Both the position numbers and the translations under genes were made by a program. This document shows, piece by piece, positions 6,300 through 48,712 of a stretch of 64,000 bases of DNA. This DNA is from Dehalococcoidia bacterium (GTDB lineage: Bacteria > Chloroflexota > Dehalococcoidia > Lucifugimonadales > JAGWBF01): contig OY760073.1 in assembly GCA_963663025.1 (NCBI GenBank), forward strand, positions 1,833,354 to 1,897,353, written 5' to 3'. Position 1 is the first letter of the stretch; each line of letters begins with the position of its first letter. The notes under the pieces are model-generated. The model ran no database searches. It worked only from the letters and a program-made list of their open reading frames with translations, and had not been told where the DNA came from.

Positions 6300-6615
6300 T
6301 TCGCCACGGACAGAGTGCCCGAATGCCTGAGTTTCCTGGATTGCGGCCTCCGCCGCAATGACGGCGAGGGTTTTCCTCATAGCCAGCCTTCAGAAGCCCT
6401 GACTCCTGCCGGCCACCTTTTTCGTCATTGCGGCGGAGGCCGCAATCCAGGACGGAGCATTGCCGGCTGCAGGGTGGTTCTGATACAGGGGCATCATTGA
6501 AATCCCCCTCAACCCAACCCTCTCCCACCAGGGGAGAGGGGGTATTGCCCGTTCGCCTCAATGACGAGGCTGTGTCCGTTCGTCCTTCGAGAGCCTCAGG
6601 GCGAACGGGTGGTAG
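6300..6615. repeat. REP cluster with a type-A inverted pair, a type-D hairpin (CCCTCTCCCACCAGGGGAGAGGG) and a type-B hairpin
   Basis: Type-A hairpins near 6337-6360 and 6425-6450. Type-D hairpin near 6519-6542. Type-B hairpin near 6575-6608. Confidence 0.75.
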
Positions 6616-25175: not shown

Positions 25176-28100
25176 TCATGCCCGATACAGACCTTGCCGC
25201 TTACGGCGACGCCACAGGACGACCAGGAAACTGAACAGAGGCAGCAGCCCCAGCAGCAGCACCCACCACCAGAGAGACATCTGCGACGGTGCGAAATCCC
25301 TCTCGGCTACAAGGACAGGGACCGGCGTTGGCTCGGAGATGTCAACCTCGGCCGACTCCCGGACCGGCAGGTACAGGTCGGGCTGTCCCACCTCGAACTG
25401 AGTCTCCTGCCTCTCGGGCGCGCTGGGATTGGCTATCTGCACTCCCGCCACAGGCGTCGGCGTGGGGGTGGGAGTGGGCTCCGGTGCGGGCGTGGCCGTC
25501 GGCGTCGGGGCCGGTGTTGCCGTCGGCGTGGGTGTGGGTGTGGGAGCGGCCGCAGGCATGTACACGGGCGTCGGAGCAGGCGTTGCCGTCGGCACAGGCG
25601 TAGGAGCAGGCGTAGGAGCCGGTGTCGGGGCCGGCGTGGGCGCAGGTGTCGGCGCCGGTGTCGGTACAGGCGTAGGCGCAGGCGTCGGGGCCGGTGTCGG
25701 AGCAGGCGTTGGCTCAGGTGTGGGAACGGGCGCAGCAGGTATGTTGCTGGGACCCGGCGCAGGCGTCGGCGTCGCTGTCGGCACAGGAGTGGGTGTGGGC
25801 GTAGGAGCAGGCGTCGGCGACGGTGTGGGTGTAGGCGTCGGAGGCGGCACAGGGTCGCTGAACACCGCTACCGTGTACAGCGTGGCCAGCGTTGACCATG
25901 CGCCGTACCCCTCATCGTTCTCCGCCATCACCTCCACCTTGTACGCTGTGCCCGGCTTCATGGGAGCGCTCGGGTTGCCGGCGATGGGCACCTCGTCCAG
26001 CAATGCCTCGTTGATGGTGACCGTCCAGGTGTTGGTGTAGCTGCTCCCCTGCTCCCAGAACCGCACCCAGTACCGCTTGACCGGAGGCTTGCCCGTGTCA
26101 TCCGGGGCAGTCCAGGTGGCTGTGATGGACGTAGTGGTGTTCTTCTTGGCCGTGGGTTTCCCGGGCTTGCCCAGAGGCTCCTTCACATCGGTTACGTTGA
26201 TGGTCATCGCCACCGTGTGGTCGATCTCGGTGTCGGCATTGCCTTCCGAGTCCAGCTTGTCGCTGACCGACACCTTGATGCTGTAGCTCGTCTTCGCTTC
26301 GTAGTCCGGACTGGTGTCAGTCGCCAGCGATATCTGCCCGGTCGAGCCGTCTATATCGAAGGATGCAGCGTCGGTCCCAGTTATGGTGTAGTACAAAGTT
26401 GAGCTGTCCGGGTCCGTGGCCGCCACCGCAGCGCCCACGTTGGATCCGCCTGTAGAGTTCTCAGCAATGCTGCGACTGGGGCTGGCAGGCAGCTTCGGGT
26501 CCACGTTGTCCAGGCTGCCGCTGTCCGACCAAGGGCTGTCGCCCTCATCGTTGGTGGCCTGCACCTGCACGTTGTAGTTGACGCCTCCCACCTGGCCGGT
26601 GATGGTCGTCGAGGTCCCCGTTCCTGTGAAGGATGCGTCAGTCCAGGTGGACGCGCCCTCCTTCTGGTAGCGCACATCGTAGTCGGTGATGGCCGGCTTG
26701 CCTGTCATGTCTGGGGCTGTCCAGGACACCTTCAGCGTGGTGTTGTCCGAGTCGCCCGAGGCGGTCACCTTCGGCGCATCGGGCTTGTCCGGGGCCTCGT
26801 CCACGTCGGTTACGTTGATGGTCACCGGGATCACGTAGTCGCCCGGGTTGTTGGGCACAAGGCTGAAGCTCTGGGCGTTGGCCCCGGCCTGGGCCGCCTT
26901 CACCGTCACAATGACGCTGTAGGCCTTCTTGGCCTCGTAGTCCAGGCTGTCGCCGGTCTTCACCTTGATCTGGCCCGATGAGCTCTCGATGGTGAAGGTG
27001 GAAGCGTCGGTCCCGCTCAGGCTGTGGGTCAGGGTGTAGCTGTTGGGGTTGGATGTCGCGGTCACCGGAGCGCCCACGTTGGCCCCCGCCGCCGAGTTCT
27101 CATCGACGTCCCGGCTCACGCCGCCGGCCTTCGTTATGGCTGTGCCGCTGGCGGACCAAGCCCCGTTGCCCTCGTTGTTGACTCCCCGCACCTGCACCTC
27201 GTAGCTCTTGCCCGAGGTCAGACCGGTCAGCGTCGTCGAGGTTCCCGTGCCGGTGAAGCTGTGGCTGCTCCAGTTGGATGCCCCGTGCTGGCGGTACTGC
27301 ACATCGTAGTCGCTCAGGGCAGGCTTCCCCGTCATGTCCGGTGCCGTCCAGCTCACGTCGATCTTGCTGGTGGGCGTGGTCGTGTTGAGCGAAACGCTTA
27401 TGGAAGGCGCGGGAGGAGGCTCGGCAACATCATCCACCTGGATGATTACCACGATCTCGTAGTTGAGAGTGGTGCTGCCCTGCTTGGTGGCCGCAATCTC
27501 CACTTCCACGTCGTAATGGTCCGTGGCTTCGAAGTCCAGGGTGGTCCCGCTCTTGACCGTTATCTTGCCGGTGCTGCTGGCAATCTCGAACTTGCCCTTG
27601 TCCGTTCCGTCCAGGGTGTGGGTCTTGGTGTAGCTGCTGTCGATGGTCTTGGTTACGGTGCCTACCTCGGCGTTGGCGGCGGAGTTTTCATCTATGTTCA
27701 GGGTTACAGAGTCCGCGTTGGTGGTGGCGTGGCCCGCATTGGACCAGCCGCTGTCACCCTCGTCGTTCTTGGCCTTCACCTGCACCTCGTAGTGCTCATT
27801 TTCGGTGAGGCCGCTGATGGTGGTGGAGGTGCCGGTTCCGGTGAAGGAATGGCTGGTCCAATTCGACGAGTGGGCCACCCGGTACTGCAGGTCGTAATCG
27901 CTGACGGCCGGCTTGCCGGTCATCGTCGGGGCTGTCCACGACACATCCAGCTTGGTCTTGGGTGTCGTGGAGTTGGGGGTCACCGTCGGCGTGGAAATGG
28001 TGGGCGGCTCGTTAACGTCGGTTACGTTGATGGTCACCGGGATGATGTAGTCGCCCGGCGCGTTGGGGTCCAGGGTGAAGCTCTGGGCATTCGCCCCCGC

Positions 28101-31100
28101 GGACGCCGCTGTCACCGTTACCGTTACGCTGTAGGTCGTCTTGGTTTCGTAGTCCAGGTTCGTTCCCGACTTCACGCTTATCTGCCCGGTGCTGCTGCTT
28201 ATCTCAAACTTTCCGGCATCCGTTCCGCTCAGGGCATGGGTCAAGGTGTAGTTGTTGGTGTTGGCTGTGACCGTCACCGCCGCGCCGACGTTGGTGCTGG
28301 CCGCCGAGTTCTCTGCGATGCTGCGGGTTATGGCGGTTGAGCTGGCGGCGACCGTTATCCCAGTGCCGGTGGGAGACCAGGGGCTGTCGCCCTCATCGTT
28401 GGTGGCCAACACCTGCACATCGTAGCTCTTGCCCTTGGTCAAGCCCGTCAAAGTCGTGCTGGTGGTGGCGCCGGTGAAAGAGGCATCGGTCCAATCGCCC
28501 GTCCCGGTGAGCCTGTACTGCACATCATAGTCGGTGATGGCCGGCTTGCCGGTCATGTCCGGCGCACTCCAGGACACATCCAGCTTGGTGGACGGCGCGG
28601 AGGAATTGACCGTAACCGTCGGCGCAGCCATCCTGGAAGGAGGCTCGCTCACGTCGGTGACGTTGATGGTCACCGTGGACGTGTCGTCGATGGTGTTGTC
28701 CGTTCCCTCCTGGGCATTCTTCCCGTCGGTTACGTTCACCGTCACGCTGTAGGAGGTCTTGGCTTCGTAGTTGGGGATGTTCCCCGTCTTTACCTTTATC
28801 TGGCCGTCACCGCTCCCGATGGTGAACTTGCTGGCGTCGGTCCCGGTCAGCGAGTAGGTCAGGGTGTCTTTGTCGGCGTCGGTGGCGGATACGGCGGCGC
28901 CGATGTTGGTCCCCGCCGCCGAGTTCTCGTCGATGCTCCGGGTGGCAGTGGCCGGGATCACCGGGGCAGCGTTCTCCTTGGTCTTCTTCGACCCGGAAGC
29001 CGACCAACCGCTGTTGCCCTCGTCGTTGATGGCTTTCACCTGCACATCGTAGGTGGTACCCGCCGTCAGACCGGTCAAGGTCGTGCTGGTTCCCGTTCCG
29101 GTGAAGCTGTGGGAAGTCCAGGTGGAGTCGCCGCTCTTCTTGTACTGCACATCGTAGTCGCTGACGGCCGGCTTGCCCGTCATCGTTGGCGCGGTCCACG
29201 AAATTTCCAGCTTGTACTTGGGATCGGTAGCATGGGCCTCTACCGTCGGCGCGGAGATGGTGGGCGGCTCGTTCACGTCGGTTACGTTGATGGTTACCGG
29301 GATGGTGTAGCTGCCCGGCGCGTTGGGGTCCAGGGACTGGGCGTTGGCGCCCCCTCCTGCCGCGGCCACCGTTACGGTCACCGTTACGCTGTACGAAGTC
29401 TTGCTCTCGTAGTCCGGGATGTTGCCCGTCTTTACCTTTATCTGGCCCGTGGTCGAGCCGATCTCGAACTTGCTGGCATCCGTCCCGCTCAGGCTGTGGG
29501 TGTAGGTGTAGCTGCTGTTGGCCTTTGCCGTAACCGCCGCGCCGATGTTGGTGCCGGCGGCTGAGTTCTCGGCGATGGAGCGGGTTACGCCCCCGGCCGT
29601 GGTTATGGCTGTGCCGCTGTCGGACCAAGCCCCGTTGCCCTCGGCGTTGACAGCCCGCACCTGCACCTCGTAGGTCTTGCCCGAGGTCAGACCGGTCAGA
29701 GTGGCGCTGGTCCCCGTTCCGGTGAAGGATGCGTCGGTCCAGGAGGAGTCACCGGAGAGCCGATACTGCACGTCGTAGTCGCTGACGGCCGGCTTGCCGC
29801 TCATCTGAGTGGTCGTCGGCGCGGTCCAGGAAGCGTCGATCTTGCTCGTCGGCGTCGTGGTGTTGGCCGCCACCGTCGGCGTACCCAGCTTGGGCGGAGG
29901 CTCGTTCACGTCGGTTACGTTGATGGTCACCGGGATCACGTAGTCGCCCGGCGCGTTGGGGTCCACCGACTGCGCGTTGGCGCCCTGCGTCTTTGCGGCC
30001 GCCGTGACCGTCACGGTTACGCTGTAGGAAGTTTTGGCTTCGTAGTCCGGGATGTTCCCCGTCTTCACCGTTATCTGCCCCGTCGAGGAGCCTATCTCGA
30101 ACTTGCTGGCATCCGTTCCGCTCAGGGCGTGGGTGTAGGTGTAGGCGGTGTTGGTAGCCTTGGCCGTTACCGCCGCTCCCACGTTGCTTCCCGCCGCCGA
30201 GTTCTCGGCGATGGAACGGGTAACCGAGCTGGAGGTGGTGATGGCGTTGCCCGTGTCGGACCATGCCCCGTTGCCCTCGGCGTTGGTGGCCCGCACCTGA
30301 ACGTCGTACTTCTTGCCCGAGGTCAGACCGGTCAGACTGGTGCTGGTCCCCGTTCCGGTGAAGCTGTGGCTGCTCCATGTCGATTCCCCGGTCTGGCGGT
30401 ACTGCACATCGTAGTCGCTGATGGCCGGCTTGCCCGTCATGGTCGGCGCAGTCCACGACACATCCAGCTTGGTGGTCGGCGTCGTGCTGTTGGCCGCCAC
30501 TGTCGGCGCAGCCATCTTGGGTGGCGGCTCGCTCACGTCGGTCACGATGATGAGGGCGCTGTAGGTTACGTCGAGGATGTTCCTCTGGAGGTTGTTCTCC
30601 ACGGCCCGGAGGGTGAGGCTGTAGCTGGTCTTGCTCTCGAAGTCCGGGACGTTGCCCGTCTTGACCTGTATCTGGGCGGACTGGGCTGTCTTGTAGCCGG
30701 TGTCCGTGCTGAGCTTGAACTTGGAGCCGTCGGTCCCGCCCAGGGTGAACTGCAGCGGGTAGTAGTCGGTGGCGTTGACGTTGAACTTCCCGCCCACGTT
30801 GCCGTTGACCGCCGTGTTCTCCGCCAGGTACAGGATGAGCGACGACCCGGACCAGTGGCCGGGCCCTTCGTCGGCGATCTGGGAGCGCACCTGCACCTCG
30901 TACTCCTTGCCGGCGGTCAGGCCGGTGATGGTCGTGCTGGTGGCCAGGCTGTTGGTGGTGTCGGGCATCTCCGTCCAGGAGCTGGTGCCCCACTCCCGGT
31001 ACCGCACATCGTAGTCGTTCAGCGTGGTGCCTGTCATCGGCGTCGGCGCGGTCCACGATACGTCCAGGGCCGTCGTGGGGTTGGTGGAGTTCTGGGCCAG

Positions 31101-32933
31101 CGTCGGCCTGTCCACGTTGGGCGCGCGGACGTCGTTCACGTTGATCTGGATGTTGCCCCCCACACTCGTGTTCTCGACGGTGTACCGGAAGTTCCCGCTG
31201 TACGAGGTCTTCGTCTCGTAGTCCAGCGTCGTCCCGTCCTTGACCGTGATCTGGCCCGTGCTGGAGTCGATGTCGAAGTAGGTGGCAACGTCGCCGCCGA
31301 GGGAGTAACTGCTGCCGTCACCGGTGTTCGCCCCACCCACGCTCCCCACCACGGTGTCCTTGGGCTTGTTCTCCTGGACGCTCTTGGTCTCCTTGCAGTC
31401 GAAATGCTTCACCTCCAGGGAAATCGAGTCGTGAAGTCCGTCGGGGTCCGTCGCCGTGTAGTGGAAGGAGTACCAGTTCAGGGGCGGATGCCTGAGGCTC
31501 GCCACGGCGTAGCCGTTGGAATTGATGGTGGTGCTGACGACCTTGGACGAACCCGCCGTGTAGGTCAGCGTGTCGTCTTCCGGGTCGTAGAAGTGCTTGG
31601 TGTGGCCGCTGCTGGGGACATAGGTGACGGAGCCGCTGTAGCAGTGGCCGTATTTCGACCAGAACTGCCCGAGAAGCTGGGAGCCGCTGCTCTTGATGCT
31701 GGCGTAGGGCGCGTGGTTGCCCGACGTGTCCGACGCCCGGATGTGGATGATCACGGACGGGGTGCTCTTGTTGGAGGCGTAGGCTTGGTAACAGGCTGCC
31801 TTGGTGGGGAACCACTTGGTGGGTGTGCCGCTCAGGGTGCGGGTGGAAGCGTTCCAGGAAATCCCGGGGGGCAGCTGCGCCCCCTTGCTGCCGCATCCCT
31901 GCGAGAGCTTGTAGGTGATGTTGGGGTCGCCGGTGGCCGCCGGCAGCGTTACGTTGACGGCAACGCCCTGCGTCCACTCCAGCAGGGTGGGCGGTGCGGT
32001 GACCCAGGATAGGCCCGCCTGGATCTGTCCGCCCTGCGCGCTGACCAGGCCCTCCTCCTGCCCGCCGTTCCGTTGCTGTTGCTGGGACGGCTCCGGCGTG
32101 GGCGTAGGAGTCGAGGTCGGTTCAGGGGTGGGCTCCTGCGTTGGTTCCGGCGTAGGCTCAGGAGTCGGCTCCTCAGTAGGTTCGGGAGTGGGCGTCGGCG
32201 TGGGGTCGGGCGCCGGCGTGAATGGACCCGAAGCCGATGAGTTGGTCCAGGCGCTGTCGCCGCTGCTGTTGCGGGCGCGCACGCCTACGACGTAGGTCTT
32301 GGCGTTGTCCGCGCTGATGTCAATGCTGGCGGATGGGTGGTCCAGGGCCGCCAGGTCCCAGCTTGCGCCGTCGTCGGAGCTGTAGGTTACGTGGTAGCTG
32401 GTTGCGCCGGAGACGGCATCCCACGACGCCGTGATCGAGCCGTCGGACCGGGCCACGGAGACTGAGGCGACGGGGCCGGGCGCAGGATCGGGCGTGAAAG
32501 GCCCGGCGGGCGGGGAGTTCTTCCAGGCGCCCCAGCCCTGGTCGTTGCCGGCGCGCACACCGACGATGTAGGTCTTGGCGTTATCGACGCTGAAGGTGAG
32601 GCTGTTGGTTGGAACGTTCCGGTGATCATCCACCGGAGCGTGCCAGCTTGCGCCGTCGTCGTCGCTGTAGGTTACGTGGTACTTGGTCGCGCCTTCGATG
32701 GCATCCCAGCTTGCCGTCAGGGCGCCGTCGGACCGGGCCACCGACACCGAGGACGGCGTGGCAAGGGTCGAGGCCTCTCCCTTGCCGCCCTGGGACGGGG
32801 TCAGGGTGGCGGCCATGGAGCTGAAGAGGAGGCAGAACACCAGGAAAAGGTGCATGGCCAAGCGGACGGGAGCATCGGGGAGCTTGGCCAGATTCATCAG
32901 CTTGGCGTTCAAGGGATTATCGGCTGCCTGCAA
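25176..32933 (-). CDS. Giant cell-surface protein 1 (2585 aa) with alternating cadherin-like and fibronectin type III modules, a PT-rich stalk and a C-terminal TM anchor
   Basis: TTG start with GAGGAGGAG SD (32938-32946). Signal peptide present. FN3 blocks (...[17 protein letters not shown]...Y.VQVRA.N.EG.G.WS). Cadherin-like blocks ([10 protein letters not shown](V/I)GAAV...[10 protein letters not shown]...[10 protein letters not shown]). The tail is ...[32 protein letters not shown]. Confidence 0.9.
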
Positions 32934-33030
32934 CTGTCTCCTCCTCTATCGGGGCCTCTGCCCAACCCTCACTACAGGACATGACGCTGTATTGGGAGGG
33001 GCAATGTTCAAGAGCGTAACTACGGCTGCT

Positions 33031-34888
33031 CGTTCGCCCCTCGAGTCCCCTCAGGACGAACGGGGAACCTGGAAATCGAAGGATGAACGGGGAACCTGGG
33101 ACTGGAAGGGCGTGGGTATGACGAATGGCCGCCCCGTCATTGCGGCGAAGGCCGCAATCCAGAAAAGTCTGGGACTGGGGCAGGTTTCCTACTTTGATGC
33201 TTGCTGTGATGTTGGAGCCGGACTGGAACCCGGCAACGCTCCGTCCTGGATTGCGGCCTTCGCCGCAATGACGAAAGGCGTTGCACTCCGTTCGTCCTGA
33301 GGGGACTCGAAGGATGAACGGAGAACCCGGGACTGGAACAGCCTGGGTATGACAAAGGGCCGCCCCGTCATTGCGGCGAAGGCCGCAATCCAGGAAAGTC
33401 TGGGACTGGGGCAGGGTCCCTACTGGAATGCCTACCGTGATGTTGGAGCCGGTCTGGAACCCGGCAGCGCTCCGTCCTGGATTGCGGCCTTCGCCGCAAT
33501 GACGAAAGGCGTTGCTGCCCGTTCGCCCTTCGAGTCCCCTCAGGGCGAACGGAGAGCCTGGGACTCGAGGGATGAACGGAGAACCTGGGACTGGAACAGC
33601 TTGGGTATGGCGAAGGGCCGCCCCGTCATTGCGGCGAAGGCCGCAATCCAGAAAAGTCCGGGACTGGGGCAGGCTTCTTACTGTAGTGTCTACCGTGATG
33701 CTGGAGCCGGACTGGAACCCTGCAGCGCTCCGTCCTGGATTGCGGCCTTCGCCGCAATGACGAAAGGCGTTGCTGCCCGTTCGCCCTTCGAGTCCCCTCA
33801 GGACGAACGGAGAGCCTGGGACTCGAGGGATGAACGGAGAGCCTGGGACTGGAACAGCGTGGGTGTGGCGAAGGGCCGCCCCGTCATTGCGGCGTAGGCC
33901 GCAATCCAGGAAAGTCTGGGACTGGGGCAGGCTTCTTACTGTAGTGTCTACCGTGATGTTTGAGCCGGACTGGAACTCGGCAGCGCTCCGTCCTGGATTG
34001 CGGCCTACGCCGCAATGACGAAAGGCGTTGCACTCCGTTCGTCCTGAGGGGACTCGAAGGATGAACGTACAATCGTGGACTGGAACAGCCCGCGCATGAC
34101 GAAGGGCGTTGTTCTCCGTTCGTCCTGAGGGGACTCGAAGGATGAACGGAGAACCCGGGGCTGGAACAGCCTGGGTATGACAAAGGGCCGCCCCGTCATT
34201 GCGGCGTAGGCCGCAATCCAGAAAAGTCCGGGACTGGGGCAGGTTCCCTACTGCAATGCCTACTGTGATGTTGGAGCCGGACTGGAACCCGGCAGCGCTC
34301 CGTCCTAGATTGCGGCCTTCGCCGCAATGACGAAAGGCGTTGTTCTCCGTTCGCCCTTCGAGTCCCCTCAGGACGAACGGAGAACCAGGAACTCGAAGGA
34401 TGAACGGGGAACTCGGGACTCGAAGGATGAACGGGGAACTCGGGACTCGAAGGATGAACGGGGAACCTGGGACTGGAAGGGCGTGGGTATGACGAAGGGC
34501 CGCCCCGTCATTGCGGCGTAGGCCGCAATCCAGGAAAGTCTGGGACTGGGGCAGGTCCCCTACTGTAATGCCTGCTGTGATGCTGGAGCCGGAGTGGAAC
34601 CCGGCAGCGCTCCGTCCTAGATTGCGGCGTAGGCCGCAATGACGAAAGACGTTGTTCTCCGTTCGTCCTGAGGGGACTCGAAGGATGAACGGGGAACCAG
34701 GGGCTGGAACAGCGTGGGTATGGCGAAGGGCTGCCCCGTCATTGCGGCCTTCGCCGCAATCCAGAAAAGTCCGGGACTGGGGCAGGCTTCTTACTGTAGT
34801 GTCTACCGTGATGCTGGAGCCGGACTGGAACCCGGCAGCGCTCCGTCCTAGATTGCGGCCTTCGCCGCAATGACGAAGGGCGAACGGC
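33031..34888. repeat. REP array 1: seven composite units, each a type-A 140-bp inverted-repeat element plus type-B hairpins with 27-bp subrepeats
   Basis: GTCATTGCGGCG anchors at 33136, 33367, 33625, 33883, 34195, 34507 and 34738. Unit lengths are 231/258/258/312/312/231. Confidence 0.9.
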
Positions 34889-34930
34889 ATAGGGATCAGG
34901 GGGTTGGGGTTATGCAAGGGTCTCCGTAGC

Positions 34931-34948
34931 GGGGGGGGGGGGGGGGGG
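34931..34948 (-). repeat. Homopolymer tract: G18 on the plus strand, C18 on the adhesin strand
   Basis: Counted directly in the sequence. The paralogous position in locus 2 carries 23 nt. Confidence 0.9.
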
Positions 34949-35100
34949 TAGTTGCGGCTGCGGGGGCGCAGCCCACGCGGGCCGGGGTGGTCGTTCCTTC
35001 TGCTGTCCTGTTCGTCAGGTTCAATGCGTTGGCCTCCACCAGCGATGAACTTATGACTTGTCAAACCCACAGGTCGGGATACGCCTTGATTGCGTCATAC

Positions 35101-35128
35101 TATATATGCGGTAAAAAATAATTGTCAA
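35101..35128 (-). promoter_or_regulatory. Second promoter-like element P2 (TTGACA-16-TATATA), present in locus 1 only
   Basis: On the minus strand, -35 is at 35128-35123 and -10 at 35106-35101. It is not conserved in locus 2. Confidence 0.35.
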
Positions 35129-35146: not shown

Positions 35147-35176
35147 ATATTAGATGCACGATAGATTGTTTGTCAA
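35147..35176 (-). promoter_or_regulatory. Conserved sigma-70-like promoter P1 of adhesin locus 1 (TTGACA-18-TAATAT)
   Basis: On the minus strand, -35 is at 35176-35171 and -10 at 35152-35147. The same hexamers and spacing occur in locus 2. The palindrome ATTGACAAACAAT overlaps the -35. Confidence 0.5.
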
Positions 35177-35250
35177 TAGCAGAATTGGGGGACGCAAGCA
35201 AGCGTATCCCCCTTGCGGCCCGGCTTTATCGATCGGGAGACATTAGAGGG

Positions 35251-35283
35251 ATGGCGCGCCGGAGGACCAGCCGGCTGACCTGT
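35251..35283 (+). pseudogene. 5' fragment of a marR paralog, a scar of the segmental duplication
   Basis: ATGGCGCGCCGGAGGACCAGCCGGCTGACCTG matches the first codons of marR at 44676, with a 30-nt internal deletion between the GCCGGAG/GGCGGAG repeats. The upstream GATCGGGAGA...GAGGG is also conserved. Confidence 0.6.
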
Positions 35284-35373: not shown

Positions 35374-38300
35374 TTATGCCTGGTACAGGCGTTGCCCCTT
35401 CCGGCGACGCCACAGGATGGCCAGGAAACCGAACAGCGGCAGCAGCCCCAGCAGCGCCACCCACCACCACAGAGACATCTGCGACGGCGCGGGATCCCTC
35501 TCTACCACAAGATCACGGACCGGAGCAGGCTCAGGGATGTCAACCTCCGCTCCACCCAGCCCATCACTGTCATCATCGGCCGCTTCCCGGACCGGCAGGT
35601 TAAGGTCGGGCTGCCCCACCTCGAACTGGGACTCCTGCCTCTGGGGCGCGCTTGGATTGGCTATCACCTGTCCCGCCACGGGCGTCGGCGTGGGCGTAGG
35701 TGTGGGCGTAGGTGTGGGATCAGGCGTAGGTATGGATGTCGGGGCCGGCGTTGCCGTCGGCACAGGTGTAGGGGCGGGCGTAGGCGCCGGCGTAGGTACT
35801 GCCGTCGGGGCCGGCGTGGGCGCTGCCGTCGGTACAGGCGTCGGGGCAGGCGTAGGAGCAGGTGTTGGCGCCGGTGTCGGCGCGGGCGTAGGCGCAGGTG
35901 TGGGAACGGGCGCAGCAGGTATGTAGCTGTGACCGGGGGCCGGCACAGGCGTGGGTGTCGGAGTCGGCGACGGTGTGGGGGTGGGGGTCGGAGTGGGAGC
36001 AGGCGTCGGAGACGGTGTAGGCGTAGGAGTAGGAGTGGGCGTAGGCGTCGGCACAGGGTCGCTGAACACTGCCACCGTGTACAGCGTAGCCAGCGTTGAC
36101 CATGCGCCGTACCCCTCATCGTTCTCAGCCATCACCTCCACCTGGTAGGCCGCGCCCGGCTTCATGGGCACGCTGGAGTTGCCGCCCGTGGGCACCTCGT
36201 CCAGGAGCGCCTCGTTGATGGTGACCGTCCAGGTGTTGGTGTAGCTGCTACCCTGCTCCCAGAACCGCACCCAGTAACGCTTGACCGGAGGCTTGCCCGT
36301 GTCATCCGGGGCAGTCCAGGTGGCGGTGATGCTCGTTGTGGTGTTCTTCTTGGCCGTCGGCTTCCCAGGCTTGCCCAGGGGCTCCTTCACGTCGGTTACG
36401 TTGATGGCCACCGCCACGGTGTGGTCGATCTCGGTGTCAGCGGCGCCCTCCGAGTCCAGCTTGTCGCTGACGTTCACCGTGACGCTGTAGCTGGTCTTGG
36501 CCTCGTAGTCCGGGCTGGCGTCGTCGGCCAGCGTTATCTGCCCGGTCGAGCCGTCTATATCGAAGGACGCAGCGTCAGTCCCCGTCAGGCTGTACTCCAG
36601 GGTATCCCCGTCCGGGTCGGTGGTTGTTACCGGGGTCCCCACGTCGGTTCCGCCTGTAGAGTTCTCGGCGATGCTGAAGGTGGGGCTGGACGGCAGCCTC
36701 GGGTCCACGTTGTCCAGGCTGCCGCTGTCCGACCAGGAGCTGTCGCCTTCATGGTTCCTGGCCAGCACCTGCACATCGTAGTTGACGCCTCCCACCTGGC
36801 CGGTGACGCTCGTCGAGGTCCCCGCACCCGTGAAGGAGTGGGAGGTCCAGGTGGAATCGCCGCTCTTCTTGTATTGAACATCGTAGTCGGTGATGGCCGG
36901 CTTGCCCGTCATGTCCGGGGCTGTCCAGGACACGTTCAGCGTGGTGTTGTCCGAGTCGCCCGAGGATGTCACCTTCGGCGCATCGGGCTTGTCCGGCGGC
37001 TCGTCCAGGTCGTTCACGTTGATGTTGACGAAGGCCGAGGCGTCTATCCCGGTGTCGGCGTTGCCGTCCTCGTCCTTGCCGTCGCTGACCTGCACCGTGA
37101 CCAGGTAGTTGGTCTTGGTTTCGTAGTCCAGGGTTGTGCCGCTCCCGACGGTTATCTGTCCGGTGGAGGAGTCTATGTCGAACTTGTCCGCATCCGTCCC
37201 GATCATGGAGTAAGTCAGCGTGTCGCCGTCGGGGTCGGTGGCGGTCACCGGGGCGCCCACCTTGTCGCCCGTGGAGGAGTTCTCGTCGATCTCCCGTACC
37301 ACTCCGAAGAGGCCGATGTCCTTGAACTTCGCCTTCTCATTCACGTCGGTAACGTTGATGGTCACCGGGATGACGTAGTCGCCCGGGTTGTTGGGAACAA
37401 GGCTGAAGCTCTGGGCGTTGGCCCCGGCCTGGGCCGCCTTCACCGTCACGATGACGCTGTAGGAAGTCTTGGTCTCGTAGTCCAGGTCCGTGCCGTTCTT
37501 GACCGTTATCTGGCCGGAGCTGCTGGCGATCTCGAACTTGGAAGCGTCGGTCCCGCTCAGGCTGTGGCTGAAGGTGTAATTGTTGGGGTTGGAGGTGGCG
37601 GTCACCGGAGCGCCCACGTTGGCCCCCGCCGCCGAGTTCTCGTCAACATCCCGGCTCACGCCCCCGGCCTTCGTTATGGCTGTGCCGGAGTCCGACCAAG
37701 CCCCGTTGCCCTCGTTGTTGACCCCCCGCACCTGCACCTCGTAGCTCTTGCCCGAGGTCAGACCGGTCAGAGTCGTCGAGGTCCCCGTGCCAGTGAAGCT
37801 GTGGCTGCTCCAGTTGCTTGCCCCGTGCTGGCGGTACTGCACATCGTAGTCGCTCAGGGCAGGCTTCCCCGTCATGTCCGGGGCTGTCCAGGAAACGTCT
37901 ATCACGCTGGTGGGCGTGGCCGTGTTGAGCGAGACGCTTATGGACGGCGCGGCCGGCGGCTCGTTCACATCGGTTACGTTGATGGTGACCGTGATGGTGT
38001 CGTCGATCTTGGTGTCCGCGTTGTCGTCGGTGTCCTTCCGGTCGCTGACCTCCACGACCACGCTGTAGGAGGTCTTGGCTTCGTAGTTGGGGATGTTGCC
38101 GGCCTTGACGCTTATCTGTCCGGTGTTCAGGCCGACGTTGAACTTGGCGCCGTCGGTCCCCGACAGGGTGTAGTACAGCGTGTGCCCCTCGGTGTCGCTG
38201 GCTGTCACCGCCGCGCCCACGTTGGTCCCCGCCGCCGAGTTCTCGGCGATGCTGCGGGTAGCCGTGGTGTCCGGGAACTCGGCGTGCACGTTCTTGTCCT

Positions 38301-41300
38301 GGGTGTTGGTACTGCCGGAAGTTGACCAGGCGCTGTTCCCCTCGTCGTTCTTCGCCTTCACCTGCACCTCGTAGCTGGTCCCTTCGGTCAGACCCGTCAG
38401 CGTCGTGCTGGTCCCAGTGCCTGTGAAGGTGTGGGAAGTCCAGTCGGAATCGCTGGTCTTCTTGTACTGCACATCGTAGTCGGAAATGGCAGGCTTGCCC
38501 GTCATGTCCGGGGCTGTCCAGCTTACGTCCAGCTTGGTCTTGGGCGTCGCCGCGTTCTGGGTAACCGTCGGCGCATCGGGAGCGGACGGAGGCTCGTTCA
38601 CGTCGGTAACGTTGATGGTCACCGCTATGGTGTCGTCAGCCGTCGTGTCCGCCGTGCCGCTGGTGTTCTTGCCGTCGGTTACGTTCACCGTGACGCTGTA
38701 GGATGTCTTGGCCTCGTAGTCGGGGATGTTCCCCGTCTTCACGGTGATCTGCCGGGTGGTAGCGTTGAAATCGAACTTGCTGGCGTCGGTGCCCGTCAGC
38801 GAGTAGGTGAGCGTGTTGAAATTCGTGTTATTGGTGTCCGGGTCGGTGGCGGCAGCAATCACCGCGCCAATGTTCGTCCCTGCTGCCGAGTTCTCGGCGA
38901 TGCTCCGCGTGGCGGTGTCGTCGCTGAACTCGGGACCTTCGTTCACGTCGGTTACGTTAATCGTCACCGGTATGACGTAGTTGCCCGGCGCGTTGGGGCT
39001 GAGGCTGGAGCTCTGGACCTGCGCCACCGCCGCCGTCACCGTGACCGTTACGCTGTAGGAGGTCTTGGTCTCGTAGTCCAGGCTTGTTCCCGTCTTCACG
39101 GTGATCTGGCCGGTGCTGCTGGCGATTTCGAACTTGGAAGCGTCGGTCCCGCTCAGCGCGTGGGTCAGGGTGTAGCTGTTGGGGTTAGAGGTAGCGGTGA
39201 CAGCCGCGCCCACGTTGGCCCCGGCGGCCGAGTTCTCGGCCACGCTGCGGGTTACGGCGCCGGCCTTCGTTATGGCTGTGCCGCTGTCGGACCAGGCCCC
39301 ATCGCCCTCGTCACTGCCGGCCCGCACCTGCACCTCGTAGCTCTTGCCCGAGGTCAGACCGGTCAGCGTCGTCGAGTCCCCCGTGCCGGTGAAGCTGTGC
39401 GAACTCCAGGTGGATGTCCCCGTCTGCCTGTATTGCACATCGTAGTCGTCCACGGCGGGCTTGCCCGACATCTGCGTGGTCGTCGGCGCGGTCCACGACA
39501 CATCCAGCTTGCTGGACGGCGTCGTGCTGTTGGCTGCCACCGTGGGCGCGCCCATCTTGGGCGGCTGCTCGTTAACATCGGTAACGTTTATGGTGACCGG
39601 GATGATGTAGTCGCCCGGCGCGTTGGGGTCCACTGACTGCGCGTTTGCGCCCTGCGTCTTTGCGGCCGCTGTGACGGTGACCGTTACGCTGTAGGACGTC
39701 TTGCTCTCGTAGTCCAGGCTGGTCCCGCTCTTGACCGTTATCTGCCCCGTGCTGCTGGCGATCTCGAACTTGGAAGCGTCGGTCCCGCTCAGCGCGTGGG
39801 TGTAGGTGTAGGTGGTATTGCTAGATTTGGCTGTCACCGCCGCGCCCACGTTGGTCCCGGAGGCCGAGTTCTCGGCGATGGAGCGGGTTACTGCGCTGGC
39901 GTCGGTGATGGCGCTGGACGAGTCGGACCAGGGGCCGTCGCCCTCGTGGTTCCCGGCCCGCACCTGCACCTCGTAGCTCTTGCCATTGGTCAGACCGGTC
40001 AGAGTGGTGCTGGTGCCCGTGCCGGTGAAGCTGTGCGAACTCCAGGTGGATGTCCCCGTCTGCCTGTATTGCACATCGTAGTCGTCCACGGCGGGCTTGC
40101 CCGACATCTGCGTGGTCGTCGGCGCGGTCCACGACACATCCAGCTTGCTGGCCGGCGTCGCGCTGTTGGCTGACACCGTGGGCGTACCCATCTTCGGCGG
40201 CGGCTCGTTTACGTCGGTTACATTGATGGTCACGGTGATGGTGTCGTCCACCACATCGTCGGCGGTGTCGTCGCTGGCCTTCTTGTCCTTGACGCTCAGG
40301 GTCAGGGTGTAGGAAGTCGTGGTCTCGTAGTCCAGCGCGGCGGCCACGTCGATGGTCCCGTTGTACTGGCCCAGGCTGAAGTCGCCGACCCCCGTGCCGG
40401 TCATGGAGTAGTACAGCGCGTCATTGTCATCGTCCGTGGCGGCCACCTTGCCCACGTCATCCCCGACCTCCGCGTCTTCCGCGATCGTCAGGGTAATGCT
40501 GTCCGAGGAGAACTCGGGCTCGGTCTGGTCGTGGGTCTTCACCTCGTCGGTGTCCGACCACGCCCCGTCGCCCTCGTCGTTGGCGGCCCGCATCTCCACC
40601 TGGTAATCGGTCTTGTAGGTCAGGCCCGTGATAGCGTAGTACTTCAGGTCCTTGCCCAGGTCGTCCACCTGTGTCCAGGTGCTGTCGCTCTTCTTCTTGT
40701 AACGCACGTCGAAGTGGGTGACGGCCGGCTTGCCCGTCATCGTGGGAGACTGCCAAGTCACCGCTATCTGGTACTTGGGGCTGCTCGCCTGCTGCTTCGC
40801 CGACGGGTCCATCTTGGGCGGAGGCTCGTTTACGTCGGTCACGCTGATGGTGATCGTTATGGTGTCGTCAACCACCGTGTCCGCCGTGCCGCTGCTGTCC
40901 TTCAGGTCGCTGACGCCCACGGTTACGGAGTAGGAGGTCGTGGACGATTCGTAGTCCAGCGTCGTGCCGGAGCCGACCTTTATCTGGCCGGTGGCGCTGT
41001 CTATGGTGAAGGATGATGCGTCGGTGCCGCTCAGCGAGTAGGTCAGCGTGTCGCTCTCGGTGTCGGTGGCGGTGACCGCCGCGCCCACGTTGACATCCGC
41101 CGCCGAGTTCTCGGCGATGCTGCGGGTGGCCGTGTCGGCGGAGAACTCCGGGTCAACGTTCTTGTCCTGCGTCTTGCCTTCGCCGGGGTCCGACCATGAG
41201 CTGTTGCCCTGGCTGTTTTTTGCCTGCACCCGCACCTCGTAGGTGGTGCCCTCGGTCAGGCCGGTGATGGTCGTTTCCAGGGTGCTGCTGCTGTATTCGT

Positions 41301-42570
41301 TGCCCCACTGTATCCAGTTCGTCTCGCTCTTCTTCTTGTATTCCACGAAGTAGCCGCTGACCTTGGGTGCGCCGTAGGTGGCGGTCCAGTCCACGTCCAG
41401 CTGGGTCTTGGGGGTGGTGGTGTTCTGGGTCACCGTGGGCGCGTTCGGCTTGTGCGGCACCGCCGGCGAAGCCGTCGTGGCTTCCGCCACGTCGGAGTAT
41501 TTCCAGCCGCAATGCCCGAAGTCGAGGTGGCTTGAATTGAACCTTATGGCGAACATCACTTCGTAGGTGGTGCTGGATTCAAGGCTCTCGATGGCCTCCT
41601 TTGACGTGTTGGCGTTTACGGTTTTCTCAGACCAGGTGCTGTCGCTCTTTTTTTTCCATTCGATTTTCGCTTGGTCTGCGCTGCCGTTGGCGGAGTTTAT
41701 CGACAACTGGAGAGCATAGAGGCTGTGCGATGGGTTGGTGGATGCGCTGACCGAGAGGGACGACTTCAGGCTGGAGCAGCCCACTCCGGCCGTCTCCAGC
41801 ACCTCTATCTTGAAGGACAGCATGACGGTGTCGGTGCCGTCGGTGGCGGAGTAGCGGTAGGTGGCCTGGGTACTGGTTACCGTCGGCGTTCCCGTGATGG
41901 TCCGCGCCGAAGCGTCGAAGGACAGGCCGGACGGCAGGCTCGGGGAGAGGGAGTAGGTTATCGTTCCGCTGCCTCCGGTGGCCTCCGGCAGGGTCAGGGT
42001 GGTGATGGCATCGTCCTTGTGCCAGGACTGGTCGGAGATGGTTGAGCCGTTGAAGGAGAGGTCGGCGTTCTGGGGCTGCACCGCGGCCTCGATGTCGCCT
42101 TCGGGTTCCGGCGTGGGATCGGGTTCCGGCGTGAAGGGCCCGGCAGACGGGGAGTTCTTCCAGGCGCCCCAGCCCTGGTCGTTCCCGGCGCGCACGCCAA
42201 CGATGTAGGTATTGGCGTTGTCAACGCTGAAGGTGAGGCTGTTGGTTGAAACGTTCGTGTGGTCGTCCACGGGGGCGTGCCAGCTTGCGCCGCCGTCGTC
42301 GCTGTAGGTTACGTGGTACTTGGTCGCTCCTTCGATAGCGGCCCAGCTTGCTGTCAGCGAGCCGTCGGACCGGGTCACCGACACCGAGGATGGCGTGGCG
42401 GGGATCGAGGCCTCCCCCTTGCCGCCCTCGCGCGGGGTCAGGGTGGCGGCCATGGAGCTGAGGAGGAGGCAGAACACCAGGAAGAGGTGCACAGCCAAGC
42501 GTACGGGAGCATCGGGGAGCTTGGCCGGATTCATGGGCTTGGTATCCATAGGGCTATTGGCTGACTGCAA
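35374..42570 (-). CDS. Giant cell-surface protein 2 (2398 aa), a paralog of protein 1 with cadherin-like/FN3 modules, a PT-rich stalk and a C-terminal TM anchor
   Basis: TTG start with GAGGAGGAAG SD. The N-terminal roughly 170 aa and C-terminal roughly 700 aa are near-identical to protein 1, while the central modules are diverged. Confidence 0.9.
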
Positions 42571-42665
42571 CTGCTTCCTCCTCTATCGGGGCCTCTTCCC
42601 AACCGCCAGGACAGGACATGACGCGGTGGTGGGAAGGGCAATGTTCAAGAGCATCACTATGGCTG

Positions 42666-44299
42666 CCCGTTCGCCCTTCGAGTCCCCTCAGGACGAACGG
42701 AGAGCCTGGGACTCGAGGGATGAACGGAGAACCTGGGGCTGGAACAGCCTGTGTATGACAAAGGGCCGCCCCGTCATTGCGGCGTAGGCCGCAACCCAGG
42801 AAAGTCTGGGACTGAGGCAGGTTCCCTACTGCAATGCCTACTGTGATGTTGGAGCCGGACTGGAACCCGGCAGCGCTCCGTCCTGGATTGCGGCCTTCGC
42901 CGCAATGACGAAAGGCGTTGCTGCCCGTTCCCCCTTCGAGTCCCCTCAGGGCGAACGTACAATCGTGGCTTGGAACAGCCCGGGTATGGTGAAAGGCGTT
43001 GCCTTCCGTTCGTCCTGAGCCTGTCCTGAGGCTCTCGAAGGGAGGGACTCGAAGGATGAACGGGGTACCCGGTACTGGGACAGCCTGGGTATGACCAAAG
43101 GCCGCCCCGTCATTGCGGCGTAGGCCGCAATCCAGGAAAGTCTGGGACTGGGGCAGGTTCCCTACTGCAATGCCTACTGTGATGTTGGAGCCGGTCTGGA
43201 ACCCGGCAGAGCTCCGTCCTGGATTGCGGCCTTCGCCGCAATGACGAAAGGCGTTGCTGCCCGTTCGCCCTTCGAGTCCCCTCAGGGCGAACGGAGGACT
43301 TGGGACTCGAAGGATGAACGGAGAACCTGGGACTGGAACAGCCTGGGTGTGGCGAAGGGCCGCCCCGTCATTGCGGCGAAGGCCGCAACCCAGGAAAGTC
43401 TGGGACTGGGGCAGGTTTCCTACTTTGATGCTTGCTGTGATGTTGGAGCCGGACTGGAACCCGGCAACGCTCCGTCCTGGATTGCGGCCTTCGCCGCAAT
43501 GACGAAAGGCGTTGCACTCCGTTCGTCCTGAGGGGACTCGAAGGATGAACGGAGAACCCGGGACTGGAACAGCCTGGGTGTGGCGAAGGGCCGCCCCGTC
43601 ATTGCGGCGTAGGCGGCAATCCAGGAAAGTCTGGGACTGGGGCAGGCTTCTTACTGTAGTGTCTACCGTGATGTTGGAGCCGGTCTGGAACCCGGCAACG
43701 CTCCGTCCTGGATTGCGGCCTACGCCGCAATGACGAAAGGTGTTGTTCTCCGTTCCCCCTTCGAGTCCCCTCAGGGCGAACGGAGAGCCTGGGACTCGAG
43801 GGATGAACGGAGAACCTGGGACTGGAACAGCTTGGGTATGGCGAAGGGCCGCCCCGTCATTGCGGCGAAGGCCGCAATCCAGAAAAGTCCGGGACTGGGG
43901 CAGGCTTCTTACTGTAGTGTCTACTGTGATGTTGGAGCCGGCCTGGAACCCGGCAGAGCTCCGTCCTGGATTGCGGCCTTCGCCGCAATGACGAAAGGCG
44001 TTGCTGCCCGTTCGCCCTTCGAGTCCCCTCAGGACGAACGGAGAGCCTGGGACTCGAGGGATGAACGGAGAACCTGGGACTGGAACAGCCTGGGTGTGGC
44101 GAAGGGCCGCCCCGTCATTGCGGCGAAGGCCGCAATCTAGGAAAGTCTGGGACTGGGGCAGGCTTCTTACTGTAGTGTCTACCGTGATGTTGGAGCCGGA
44201 CTGGAACCCGGCAGCGCTCCGTCCTGGATTGCGGCCTTCGCCGCAATGACGAAAGACGTTGTCCTCCGTTCGTCCTGAGGGGACTCGAAGGATGAACGG
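42666..44299. repeat. REP array 2: six composite units paralogous to array 1
   Basis: Anchors at 42773, 43109, 43367, 43598, 43856 and 44114. Unit lengths are 336/258/231/258/258. Confidence 0.9.
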
Positions 44300-44351
44300 C
44301 ATAGGGATTAGGGGGTTGAGGTTATGCAAGGGGATCCGAAGCCCCTGGAGC

Positions 44352-44374
44352 GGGGGGGGGGGGGGGGGGGGGGG
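44352..44374 (-). repeat. Homopolymer tract: G23 on the plus strand, C23 on the adhesin strand
   Basis: Counted directly in the sequence. It occupies the position homologous to 34931-34948. Confidence 0.9.
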
Positions 44375-44572
44375 TAGTTTCGGCCGTGGGGATGCAGGCC
44401 CCGCAGGCCGGGGTGGTTGCTGCCTTTGCTGTCGTATCCGTCAGGTTCAATGCGTTGGCCTCCACCAGCGATGAACTTACGACTTGCCAGTCCCACACGC
44501 TATGATGTATTTTGATTGCGCTACACGATAAATGTAATAGCAAATAGTTGTTAAATACAATGACTTCTTAAT

Positions 44573-44602
44573 ATATTAGATGCGTGTTGCATTGTTTGTC
44601 AA
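44573..44602 (-). promoter_or_regulatory. Conserved promoter P1 of adhesin locus 2 (TTGACA-18-TAATAT), divergent from marR
   Basis: On the minus strand, -35 is at 44602-44597 and -10 at 44578-44573, matching locus 1. Confidence 0.5.
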
Positions 44603-44675: not shown

Positions 44676-45152
44676 ATGGCGAGCCGGAGACCGCAGGACG
44701 ACCCTGACAGCGCGGCGGAGGACCAGCCGGTTGACCTGGAGCCGTACGTAACCGGCCTGGTTAACGTGGTCGATAAGGGGATGACGAGCGAGGTGCTGCC
44801 CTACGGCATCACCCTGCCCGAGTTCAGCCTCCTCAGGAACTGCATGGACAAGGAAACCACGGCCACCCAGCTTGCCCAGGTCCTGCCGGTTGACGGCGCC
44901 CGCATAAGCCGCTTGGTGAATGTGCTGGTGGACAGGGGTCTGCTGCGCAGGAGGCGCCTGCGCAGCGACAGGCGCATCGTGATGCTCAGCCTCTCCGAGC
45001 GGGGGAGGGAGCTGACTTCCCAGGTGGTCCAGGAGATGGAGAGCTACAACGCCAACCTCATGGAGGGCATCAGCCGGGAGGAGATGCGAACCTTCCTGGA
45101 CGTCGCCTCCAAGATAATCGCCAACTACACAGCCAGCCAGGGGGAGGAGTAG
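44676..45152 (+). CDS. MarR-family transcriptional regulator
   Basis: Winged-helix region TATQLAQVLPVDGARISRLVNVLVDRGLLRRRRLRSDRRIVMLSLSERG. Confidence 0.85.
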   Translation: MASRRPQDDPDSAAEDQPVDLEPYVTGLVNVVDKGMTSEVLPYGITLPEFSLLRNCMDKETTATQLAQVLPVDGARISRLVNVLVDRGLLRRRRLRSDRRIVMLSLSERGRELTSQVVQEMESYNANLMEGISREEMRTFLDVASKIIANYTASQGEE

Positions 45153-47309: not shown

Positions 47310-48712
47310 GGGCGCCCGTTCGTCCTGAGGGAACAGGCTGCCCTAGCAATCCGTTCGTCCTGAGGCTCTCGAAGGGCGAACGGGCGGGTGGGCTTTACAG
47401 CACAGCCTATCGTCGTTCCCGTGCAAACTTATCCTCGTGAAAACGGGGTGCCGGAGCCTGCCTTGATTTGCAGCACGGCTGTCCGTTCGTCCTGAGGGAA
47501 CAGGCTGCCCTAACAATCCGTTCGTCCTGAGGCTCTCGAAGGGCGAACGGGCGGGTGGGCTTTACAGCACAGCCTATCGTCATTGCGGCGAAGGCCGCAA
47601 TCCAGGACGGAACGGCAGGGGCCCAGGATGGCTCACACCAATACCCCAAGGCATTGCAGTAGGGAACCTGCCCCAATGACGTACTTTCCTGGATTGCGGC
47701 CTTCGCCGCAATGACGGAGCAGCCTTTCGGAATAAACGGGGCTTTCCAAGCATTGCGCCCCTTACCCCTCCTCCCACTGGTCGCGCCTTTCGACGCACCC
47801 AGCCTCCCCGAAGCCCTGCCCCCTATCGTCGTTCCCGTGCAAACGGGAACCTACCCTGGCTCGCAGCACGACTGTCCGTTCGTAATTCGAGAGCCCCTTC
47901 GAGAGCCTCAGGACAGGCTCAGGGCGAACGGGCGGGTGGGCTTTACAGCACAGCCTATCGTCATTGCGGCGAAGGCCGCAATCCAGGACGGAACGCTGCC
48001 GGGTTCCAGGCTAGCTCCAGCACCACAGTCGTTATTACAGTAGGGAACCTGCCCCAATGACGGACTTTCCTGGATTGCGGCCTTCGCCGCAACGACGGAG
48101 CAGCCTTTCGGAATAAACCGGGCTTTCCAAGCATTGCGCCCCTTACCCCTCCTCCCACTGGTCGCGCCTTTCGACACACCCAGCCTCCCCGAAGCCCTGC
48201 CCCCTATCGTCGTTCCCGTGCAAACGGGAACCTACCCTGGCTCGCAGCACGGCTGTCCGTTCGTCCTGAGGGAACAGGCTGCCCCAGCAATCCGTTCGTC
48301 CTGAGGCTCTCGAAGGGCGAACGGGCGGGTGGGCTTTACAGCACAGCCTATCGTCATTGCGGCGAAGGCCGCAATCCAGCACGGAACGTTGCAGGGGCCC
48401 AGGATGGCTCACACCAATCCCCCAAGGCATTACAGTAAGGAACCTGCCCCAATGACGGACTTTCCTGGATTGCGGCCTTCGCCGCAACGACGGAGCAGCC
48501 TTTCGGAATAAACGGGGCTTTCCAAGCATTGCGCCCCTTACCCCTCCTCCCACTGGTCGCGCCTTTCGACGCACCCAGCCTCCCCGAAGCCCTGCCCCCT
48601 ATCGTCGTTCCCGTGCAAACGGGAACCTACCCTGGCTCGCAGCACGACTGTCCGTTCGTCATTCGAGAGCCCCTTCGAGAGCCTCAGGACAGGCTCAGGG
48701 CGAACGGGCGGG
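47310..48712. repeat. REP array 3: about 3.5 units of a 381-395-bp composite (types A, B and C), with A elements inverted relative to arrays 1 and 2
   Basis: GTCATTGCGGCG anchors at 47579, 47960 and 48353. Type-C anchors at 47827, 48208 and 48603. Confidence 0.9.

Follow-up and report, generated by a model that had tools for sequence, protein, structure and literature searches.

The window, i.e., the whole stretch of 64,000 nucleotides analysed here, carries two tandem adhesin loci, each of which presents in the same order two promoter-like sites, a leader, a poly-C tract, 1.8 to 2.0 kb of repeats and the gene of a giant fn3 and cadherin protein. This organization raises the question of whether the length of the tract, C23 in locus 2, governs the expression of the adhesin and, if so, through which reading frame. 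A previous sequence-only reading of this DNA had proposed that the length of the tract decides whether the leader ORF joins the array frame, and that the assembled pattern is the one expected of independently phase-variable paralogous adhesins. To our knowledge, nearly all cases of phase variation by simple repeats come from culturable host-adapted pathogens, and the literature searched yielded no description of phase variation in this Dehalococcoidia lineage, nor of a repeat array kept open inside an upstream ORF (uORF).

Two long poly-C tracts in the window

Counting on the sequence confirmed the C23 tract announced at 44352-44374 and the paralogous tract of locus 1, which is C18 (Table 1). 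They are the only homopolymers longer than 8 nt in the 64-kb window, and words of twelve C were observed 19 times for 0.13 expected from shuffled sequences. The two tracts differ in length by 5 nt, the 122 nt from the GTG codon to the tract aligning without any indel between the loci, and both fall in the hypermutable range of contingency loci (G/C runs of about 8 nt or more). The RNA surrounding the tract is predicted to be unpaired, and these surroundings rank among the most C-rich and G-poor 78-nt segments of the minus strand. A function as promoter spacer was rejected, no promoter-like site flanking the tract and the predicted -10 elements lying 150-200 nt upstream.

Long G/C homopolymers are difficult on every sequencing platform, and assembled counts of 18 to 23 nt are error-prone, which makes the tract lengths unreliable. 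That the tracts or their lengths would be assembly or sequencing artefacts deprived of biological meaning is nevertheless hardly credible, since they occupy homologous positions with conserved flanks in the two loci, since homologous tracts were found at the 5' ends of related adhesin genes on six independent contigs from two samples, and since the runs present in about 850 kb of other related loci do not exceed 13 nt. The C23 tract is real; its existence is no artefact and its exact length alone is doubtful. It is probably part of a slippage-type on/off switch.

Table 1. Features of the two adhesin loci of the window, with the homopolymer tracts of the related contigs.
Feature	Position	Strand	Description
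Adhesin 2	35374..42570	-	2398 aa, fn3 + cadherin; SD GGAGGA + TTG 42570
Adhesin 1	25176..32933	-	2585 aa, fn3 + cadherin; SD GGAGGAG + TTG 32933
MarR-family regulator	44676..45152	+	divergent
Promoter-like P1, locus 2	44573..44602	-	TTGACA-18-TAATAT
Promoter-like P1, locus 1	35147-35176	-	conserved counterpart
Promoter-like P2, locus 2	44525..44554	-	TTAACA-18-TATCGT
Promoter-like P2, locus 1	35099-35128	-	counterpart, TTGACA-18-TATAGT
GTG start of the sequence-only reading, locus 2	44494..44496	-	
GTG start of the sequence-only reading, locus 1	35068-35070	-	
41-nt block, locus 2	44439..44479	-	identical in both loci
41-nt block, locus 1	35013-35053	-	identical in both loci
SD, locus 2	44459-44463	-	GGAGG, inside the 41-nt block
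TTG start candidate, locus 2	44448-44450	-	after GGAGG-N8
TTG start candidate, locus 1	35022-35024	-	after GGAGG-N8
Leader ORF from SD + TTG, locus 2	44322..44450	-	42 aa as assembled; stop 9 codons past the tract
Leader ORF from SD + TTG, locus 1	34896-35024	-	equivalent, 42 aa
Leader ORF from GTG, locus 2	44308..44496	-	62 aa
Poly-C tract, locus 2	44352..44374	-	C23 (G23 on the + strand), sequence count
Poly-C tract, locus 1	34931..34948	-	C18, paralogous, sequence count
Stop-free frame past the tract, locus 2	42554..44351	-	598 codons; 6 REP/REPIN-like units of 231/258/336 nt + unique ends
Listed ORF of this frame, locus 2	42554-44329	-	591 codons
TAG ending the array frame, locus 2	42554-42556	-	14 nt beyond the first base of the adhesin TTG
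Stop-free frame past the tract, locus 1	32917..34930	-	670 codons; 7 units of 231/258/312 nt
TAA ending the array frame, locus 1	32917-32919	-	
Third REP-type array	47470-48660		period 381, 3.1 copies; flanked by the genes of seryl-tRNA synthetase (48918-50189) and of a tRNA
Tract of contig L104			C18; follows ATG..AAGATGTA, then signal peptide
Tract of contig L105			C20; GGAGG-N9-ATG, 7 codons, tract; in frame with the adhesin, which has another ATG past the tract
Tract of contig L106			C22; GGAGG-N8-ATG, 6 codons, tract; no start past the tract
Tract of contig L107			G20; GGAGG-N6-ATG, 4 codons, tract; poly-Gly ahead of signal peptide
Tract of contig L108			C20; short uORF distinct from the adhesin gene; ATGA overlap with the adhesin ATG at the end of one frame
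Tract of contig L109 (P0138)			C15; adhesin 5' end; second sample

Tracts in homologous adhesin genes

The homologues of Table 1 were found by a search with the adhesin N-terminal domain, at about 60-66% identity, L104 to L108 originating from sample ERZ21830300. In these five contigs the tract lies 14-23 nt past a start codon preceded by an SD or SD-like motif, which is GGAGG in L105-L108 and, read by eye, AAGGA in L104. Since the sole start codon of L104, L106 and L107 is upstream of the tract, translation of these genes must cross it. Judged from these contigs, a module made of an SD, a start codon, a few codons and a G/C tract is recurrent in the adhesin family. Four of the six loci were picked for their in-frame poly-Pro or poly-Gly, and their 'ON' state says nothing on the frequency of that state. 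L109 was checked as a possible natural OFF variant; its C15 is present, and no recognisable signal peptide was seen in any frame upstream. A generic scan of JGI metagenomes for SD-ATG-N10-30-C15 returned at least 120 contigs, none of them encoding the adhesin family of the window, so that the scan does not bear on this system; these contigs (L110-L229, generic module GGAGG-N5-10-ATG-N10-30-C15+) come from very diverse metagenomes, and the motif is often at contig ends.

In the assemblies of L104, L106 and L108 the gene calls break the adhesin homologues up into series of short ORFs. This fragmentation suggests either frameshift errors or a real pseudogenisation, and it is a warning on homopolymer accuracy in those assemblies.

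The nearest relatives were reached through the MarR-family regulator (60-66% identity; L001 and L006-L009), an exact look-up of the window MarR giving no match. The divergent MarR-adhesin arrangement is kept in them, together with the promoters and the long leader, and neither tract nor array was found in L001-L009, so that neither conservation within the lineage nor variation in tract length can be demonstrated from them. The array-less L007 has, as in the window, a uORF whose stop overlaps the adhesin start: this 88-aa uORF (5495-5761), devoid of tract and REP array, contains an internal 19-aa duplication and ends 17 nt inside the adhesin ORF. Beside the same locus, the MarR homologue of L007 has a G13 run just ahead of its stop codon (6480-6492), which could be a second simple-repeat site, in the regulator itself. 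In the window, a remnant of the MarR start stands upstream of the locus 1 promoters (35250-35268, reverse complement ATGGCGCGCCGGAGGACC), homologous to the first MarR codons (44676); the tandem duplication thus carried the whole divergent intergenic region, any MarR operator included.

The leader and its start codon

The leaders of the two loci are 84% identical, and their 20 differences over 122 nt are distributed 6/7/7 by codon position, with no bias in any frame; no leader peptide is conserved between the paralogues, and a protein search for it yielded no candidate. The 41-nt invariant block corresponds to positions 17-57 of the 122 nt from GTG to tract. Its 22-nt core has no exact match in the genome_contigs and metagenome_contigs sets. 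At gathering thresholds, Rfam recognised only a tRNA, the sub-threshold miRNA and CRISPR-DR matches of leader and array reflecting hairpins, and on this result a riboswitch or other known RNA leader was rejected.

The sequence-only reading had placed the leader start at the GTG (44496 in locus 2, 35070 in locus 1) and had concluded that locus 1 (C18) is ON and locus 2 (C23) OFF, in opposite phase. The two ORFs on which it relied, of 62 aa and 591 codons, are both in the ORF list, and our recount agrees with its arithmetic: after TAC, (n-1) C plus 22 nt have to form a multiple of 3 to reach TTG CAT AAC, so that the frames join when n is a multiple of 3. This is the case in locus 1, where C18 joins GTG 35070 to the array frame in a 717-codon ORF (32917-35070), and not in locus 2. 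Both loci have the GTG, the first two codons that differ past it do so synonymously, and an ATT codon in the same frame, 7 nt past the GGAGG, would lead to the same outcome (locus 1 ON, locus 2 OFF). However, no SD was found upstream of the GTG in either locus, this codon sits about 20 nt from the predicted transcription start, and the leader differences show no codon-position bias in its frame. The conserved SD and start belong instead to the TTG, in the +1 frame, and their GGAGG-N8-TTG geometry matches the modules of L105, L106 and L108; the relatives L001 and L006 also carry a GGAGA-N8-TTGAACCTG resembling the SD and start of the window. The TTG at 44450 is better supported than the GTG at 44496 and is most likely the start codon.

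From the TTG, which is one base out of the GTG frame, the long frame needs n = 1 mod 3, and both assembled loci would be OFF, C18 being one short of the 19 needed and C23 having one more than 22. The call would change if the 23-mer had been miscounted by a single C in either direction, and the array that the GTG would open is not part of the adhesin protein. An ON locus 1 facing an OFF locus 2 is not established, and we consider this version improbable; its opposite phase is unsafe since it depends on an unverified start codon and on assembled lengths of exactly 18 and 23. Neither locus can be called ON or OFF from the assembly, and more generally it is unsafe to base such a call on a single assembled homopolymer length together with a start codon that is assumed. 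C runs are also prone to ribosomal +1 slippage and to poly-Pro stalling, which could blur a strict phase.

The adhesin genes

Both adhesin genes begin with a TTG preceded at 4-5 nt by GGAGGA(G), 1.8-2.0 kb downstream of the tract. Their first 146 residues are 85% identical, and the differences over this N-terminus (14/9/27 by codon position) have a clear coding signature. Giant size, fn3 and cadherin domains and a signal-peptide-like N-terminus indicate surface products; adhesin 2 has in addition a C-terminal hydrophobic segment. No sequestration of the adhesin SD is predicted (z about 0), and adhesin translation may consequently not need the uORF. A hairpin sequestering this SD and forcing translational coupling was considered and is unsupported by the same value.

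A long open frame downstream of the tract

The poly-C encodes poly-proline in every frame. Past it, two of the three outgoing frames meet a stop within 9-13 codons, and the third stays open across the whole array, including its unique head and tail segments, until a stop that falls 14-17 nt past the adhesin TTG, in a different frame, in both loci. This terminal stop is the only one of the long frame, vs 10-22 in each of the other two sense frames. These positions contradict an identification of the array frame with the adhesin product: the adhesin starts at a separate GGAGGA-N5-TTG, shortly after which the array ORF terminates in another frame; a fusion of the two was rejected for the same reasons, the frames being different and a stop lying between them. 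The array frame not being part of the adhesin protein, it would be, if read, an upstream ORF. A conserved protein was also rejected: the array ORF has no Pfam family, and against 1.84 billion representatives it found itself and 11 short and weak matches.

The open frame goes along with a regularity in length. All unit lengths (231, 258, 312, 312 and 336 nt) are multiples of 3, the variants differing from the 231-nt base by +27, +54, +81 and +105 nt, and so are the inter-locus indels of 9 and 36 nt just past the tract and the total length difference of 216 nt. The chance that six length changes would all be multiples of 3 is roughly (1/3)^6, i.e., about 0.001, if they are treated as independent. 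The arrays of the two loci are paralogous (95.6% identical over an aligned 744 nt) and represent one evolutionary case, not independent witnesses. The long frame lacks a coding signature and seems spurious as a protein: GC3 is 0.61 in the array frame vs 0.70-0.90 in ten real genes, the differences between the array tails of the two loci are distributed 6/4/6 by codon position, and the changes between units comprise 21 synonymous and 36 non-synonymous ones where 27% synonymous are expected, a weak excess (about p = 0.06 by our own estimate). Of all single changes that could arise in the unit core, only about 1.6% would introduce a stop into the long frame. The preserved frame argues for its being read, and the lack of codon bias argues against translation. 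Selection for an open frame is likely; it would act on the passage of ribosomes and not on a product.

The identity of the array blocks (33302-34045 vs 43533-44276) exceeds that of the leaders and that of the adhesin N-terminal coding sequence (88.6%), which suggests gene conversion or concerted evolution of the arrays.

REP-like nature of the array

Within every unit the hairpin ATTGCGGC-N4-GCCGCAAT is present as two inverted copies about 112 nt apart, accompanied by a second palindrome, and one unit is predicted to fold at -117.7 kcal/mol (z = -5.2). The hairpin has 34 matches in the window, inside and outside the arrays, those outside being near 18, 734, 838, 2563, 6340, 6426 and 46427 and in the third array (47470-48660). 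Together with its flank it was retrieved, in either orientation, from more than 94 stretches of Dehalococcoidia/Chloroflexota MAGs, and a Dehalococcoidia-type Chloroflexota is the most likely source of the DNA. By its sequence, the array is a member of a REP/REPIN/BIME-like repeat family, its short palindrome being repeated in both orientations and its inverted doublets and tandem clusters forming long hairpins. On the minus strand, no intrinsic-terminator-like site was found between tract and adhesin, the strong hairpins present there having no U-tract.

Other arrays of the family served as controls. In six of them, from related genomes, the periods range from 199 to 398 nt, none being a multiple of 3, and the longest stop-free stretch covers 17-68% of the array; the third array of the window, an internal control, has stops in all six frames. 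We know of no REP array reported to preserve a reading frame.

In the two loci (33138-34872 and 42887-44248), the 4-nt loops of the REP hairpins alternate between GAAG/CTTC and GTAG/CTAC with otherwise identical stems, and in the unit at 34641 it is the 'wrong' arm that bears the flipped loop, as though an inversion of hairpins had taken place at the DNA level.

A proposed leader-ORF phase switch or a possible relic leader

Taken together, these data are in agreement with a leader-ORF phase switch, to which we give an even chance, and in which the C23 tract would select the frame of an upstream ORF and not that of the adhesin ORF. Transcription would start from the conserved tandem promoters (44602-44525), and ribosomes would load most likely at GGAGG-N8-TTG (44450), the GTG at 44496 being less likely, and would traverse the tract as poly-proline whichever their frame. 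In two of the three outgoing frames they would terminate after 9-13 codons; in the third they would translate 598 codons, or 670 in locus 1, across REP-like palindromes that fold strongly, and terminate 14-17 nt beyond the adhesin SD and TTG. The length of the tract would in this manner decide whether ribosomes cover the C-rich and structured leader of 1.8-2.0 kb. Rho-dependent polarity acts readily on a C-rich leader that is left untranslated, and reinitiation is favoured where the stop of a uORF overlaps the start that follows. Covering ribosomes could allow the adhesin to be reached by transcription and/or translation, through the averting of premature termination or polarity and through termination-reinitiation coupling, and adhesin expression would be lower or absent when this cover is lacking. 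We infer here three things: a variation of tract length in the population, the translation of the uORF and its control of the adhesin. Indirect evidence for the first is given by the 5-nt difference between the paralogues, whose flanks align without indels, and by the 15, 18, 20, 20 and 22 C of the homologous modules. If the array is translated, the transit of ribosomes would matter and not the product.

The proposal of independently phase-variable adhesins is retained in part: it agrees with the paralogous tracts of divergent length, with their place in the transcribed 5' part of each locus, with the six homologous contigs and with frame preservation, and it has to accommodate a tract that lies outside the adhesin ORF. 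A more specific form, which we advance only tentatively, is that the REP-like array would persist as a spacer which is translated and kept in frame inside a phase-variable uORF, a ribosome traverse of about 2 kb gating the adhesin and the two loci switching independently.

The same elements could also be the relic of an older arrangement, in which REP elements, by invading and expanding between tract and gene, separated the adhesin from a poly-C switch formerly at its N-terminus, tract and array now forming a long 5' UTR. The length of the tract would then be without effect, or would act without translation (rut-like Rho loading, a G-run in the template, RNA stability), and the long open frame would be a by-product of the unit structure. 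The strong and unsequestered SD of the adhesin itself is in agreement with such a relic, as are the dispersal of the REP-like hairpins in the window and in the MAGs in both orientations, the lack in the long frame of codon bias, of homologues and of a synonymous excess beyond the weak one mentioned above, and the relatives L007, L001 and L006, which manage without a tract. The C-rich, G-poor and unpaired surroundings of the tract fit the general properties of rut sites, and the low proportion of stop-creating changes in the unit core makes the absence of stops, as far as substitutions alone are concerned, unsurprising. Against this explanation, all of the six or more independent length changes are multiples of 3, the frame open in the array is also open in the unique head and tail, and frame preservation is not seen in other REP arrays of the family; the 41-nt invariant block, moreover, has kept an SD and a start that would be needless in an untranslated leader. 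We consider it rather unlikely.

Comparison with known systems

G/C homopolymers in the 5' coding or signal-peptide region switch surface proteins such as Neisseria pilC and the products of lgt genes, and act likewise in contingency genes of Helicobacter and Campylobacter. The relatives L104, L106 and L107, with a G/C run a few codons past the adhesin start, resemble this classical translational switch, and the paralogues of the window resemble it by their difference in tract length. In the window, however, the tract is 1.8-2.0 kb upstream of the adhesin and in a separate ORF, and its 18-23 nt are at or beyond the usual long end of the classical range. Other homopolymers grade the expression of adhesins, i.e., the poly-G of the 5' UTR of Moraxella catarrhalis uspA1 and the poly-C of the Bordetella fim promoter. 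As in these cases, a G/C run upstream of the adhesin start could alter expression and leave the protein unchanged; unlike them, the tract of the window is about 150-200 nt past the predicted -10, is no promoter spacer and is preceded by a conserved SD and start.

With the REP, BIME and REPIN elements of proteobacteria, the repeats of the window share GC-rich palindromes, inverted pairs, tandem clusters, an intergenic dispersal in both orientations and their presence in related genomes. They differ in that two arrays of the window lie in a 5' leader with a preserved reading frame, and in their lineage, Dehalococcoidia.

The closest published system is pil1 of S. gallolyticus, where the GCAGA repeat count of a leader-peptide gene determines how long the peptide is and where a longer leader translation destabilises a premature terminator and increases pilus transcription (Danne et al. 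2014, PMC3894217). Both systems have a simple repeat in a leader ORF, putatively translated in the window, ahead of adhesin or pilus genes, the downstream gene keeping its own start, and in both the repeat number would set the frame and thereby how far ribosomes travel, which is a proposal by analogy in the case of the window. They differ by the repeat itself (a C homopolymer of 18-23 nt vs GCAGA units) and by what lies beyond it, the long frame of the window running over 598-670 codons of REP-like palindromes whereas the pil1 peptide is short and reaches one terminator stem-loop. The terminator on which pil1 relies has no counterpart among the intrinsic terminators sought between tract and adhesin. 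The organism of the window, finally, is an uncultured bacterium of Chloroflexota type.

Long G/C tracts recur, in the window and on the six contigs, at the 5' ends of giant fn3/cadherin adhesin genes of uncultured Dehalococcoidia-type bacteria. If the tracts switch, they would provide a stochastic diversification of the surface, with a bearing on symbiont persistence and on gene annotation, tract-dependent frames being one more route by which these adhesin genes can be mis-annotated. If the array is indeed a translated spacer, it would represent a contingency locus of novel design, and REP arrays would for the first time be seen under selection for translatability. The window is a test case of whether a palindromic array can be kept open only for the passage of ribosomes and whether a leader-ORF switch can act over 2 kb.

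Other features of the window

Besides the adhesin loci, the window encodes a 3388-aa modular PKS (8711-18877; KS-AT-DH-MT-ER-KR-ACP-KS) and an ankyrin-repeat protein (24136-25071). The PKS, the ankyrin protein and the eukaryote-like domains of the adhesins suggest, in our own reading, a host-associated lifestyle. A Cache-domain gene carries a 387-nt in-frame tandem repeat (19288-20122).
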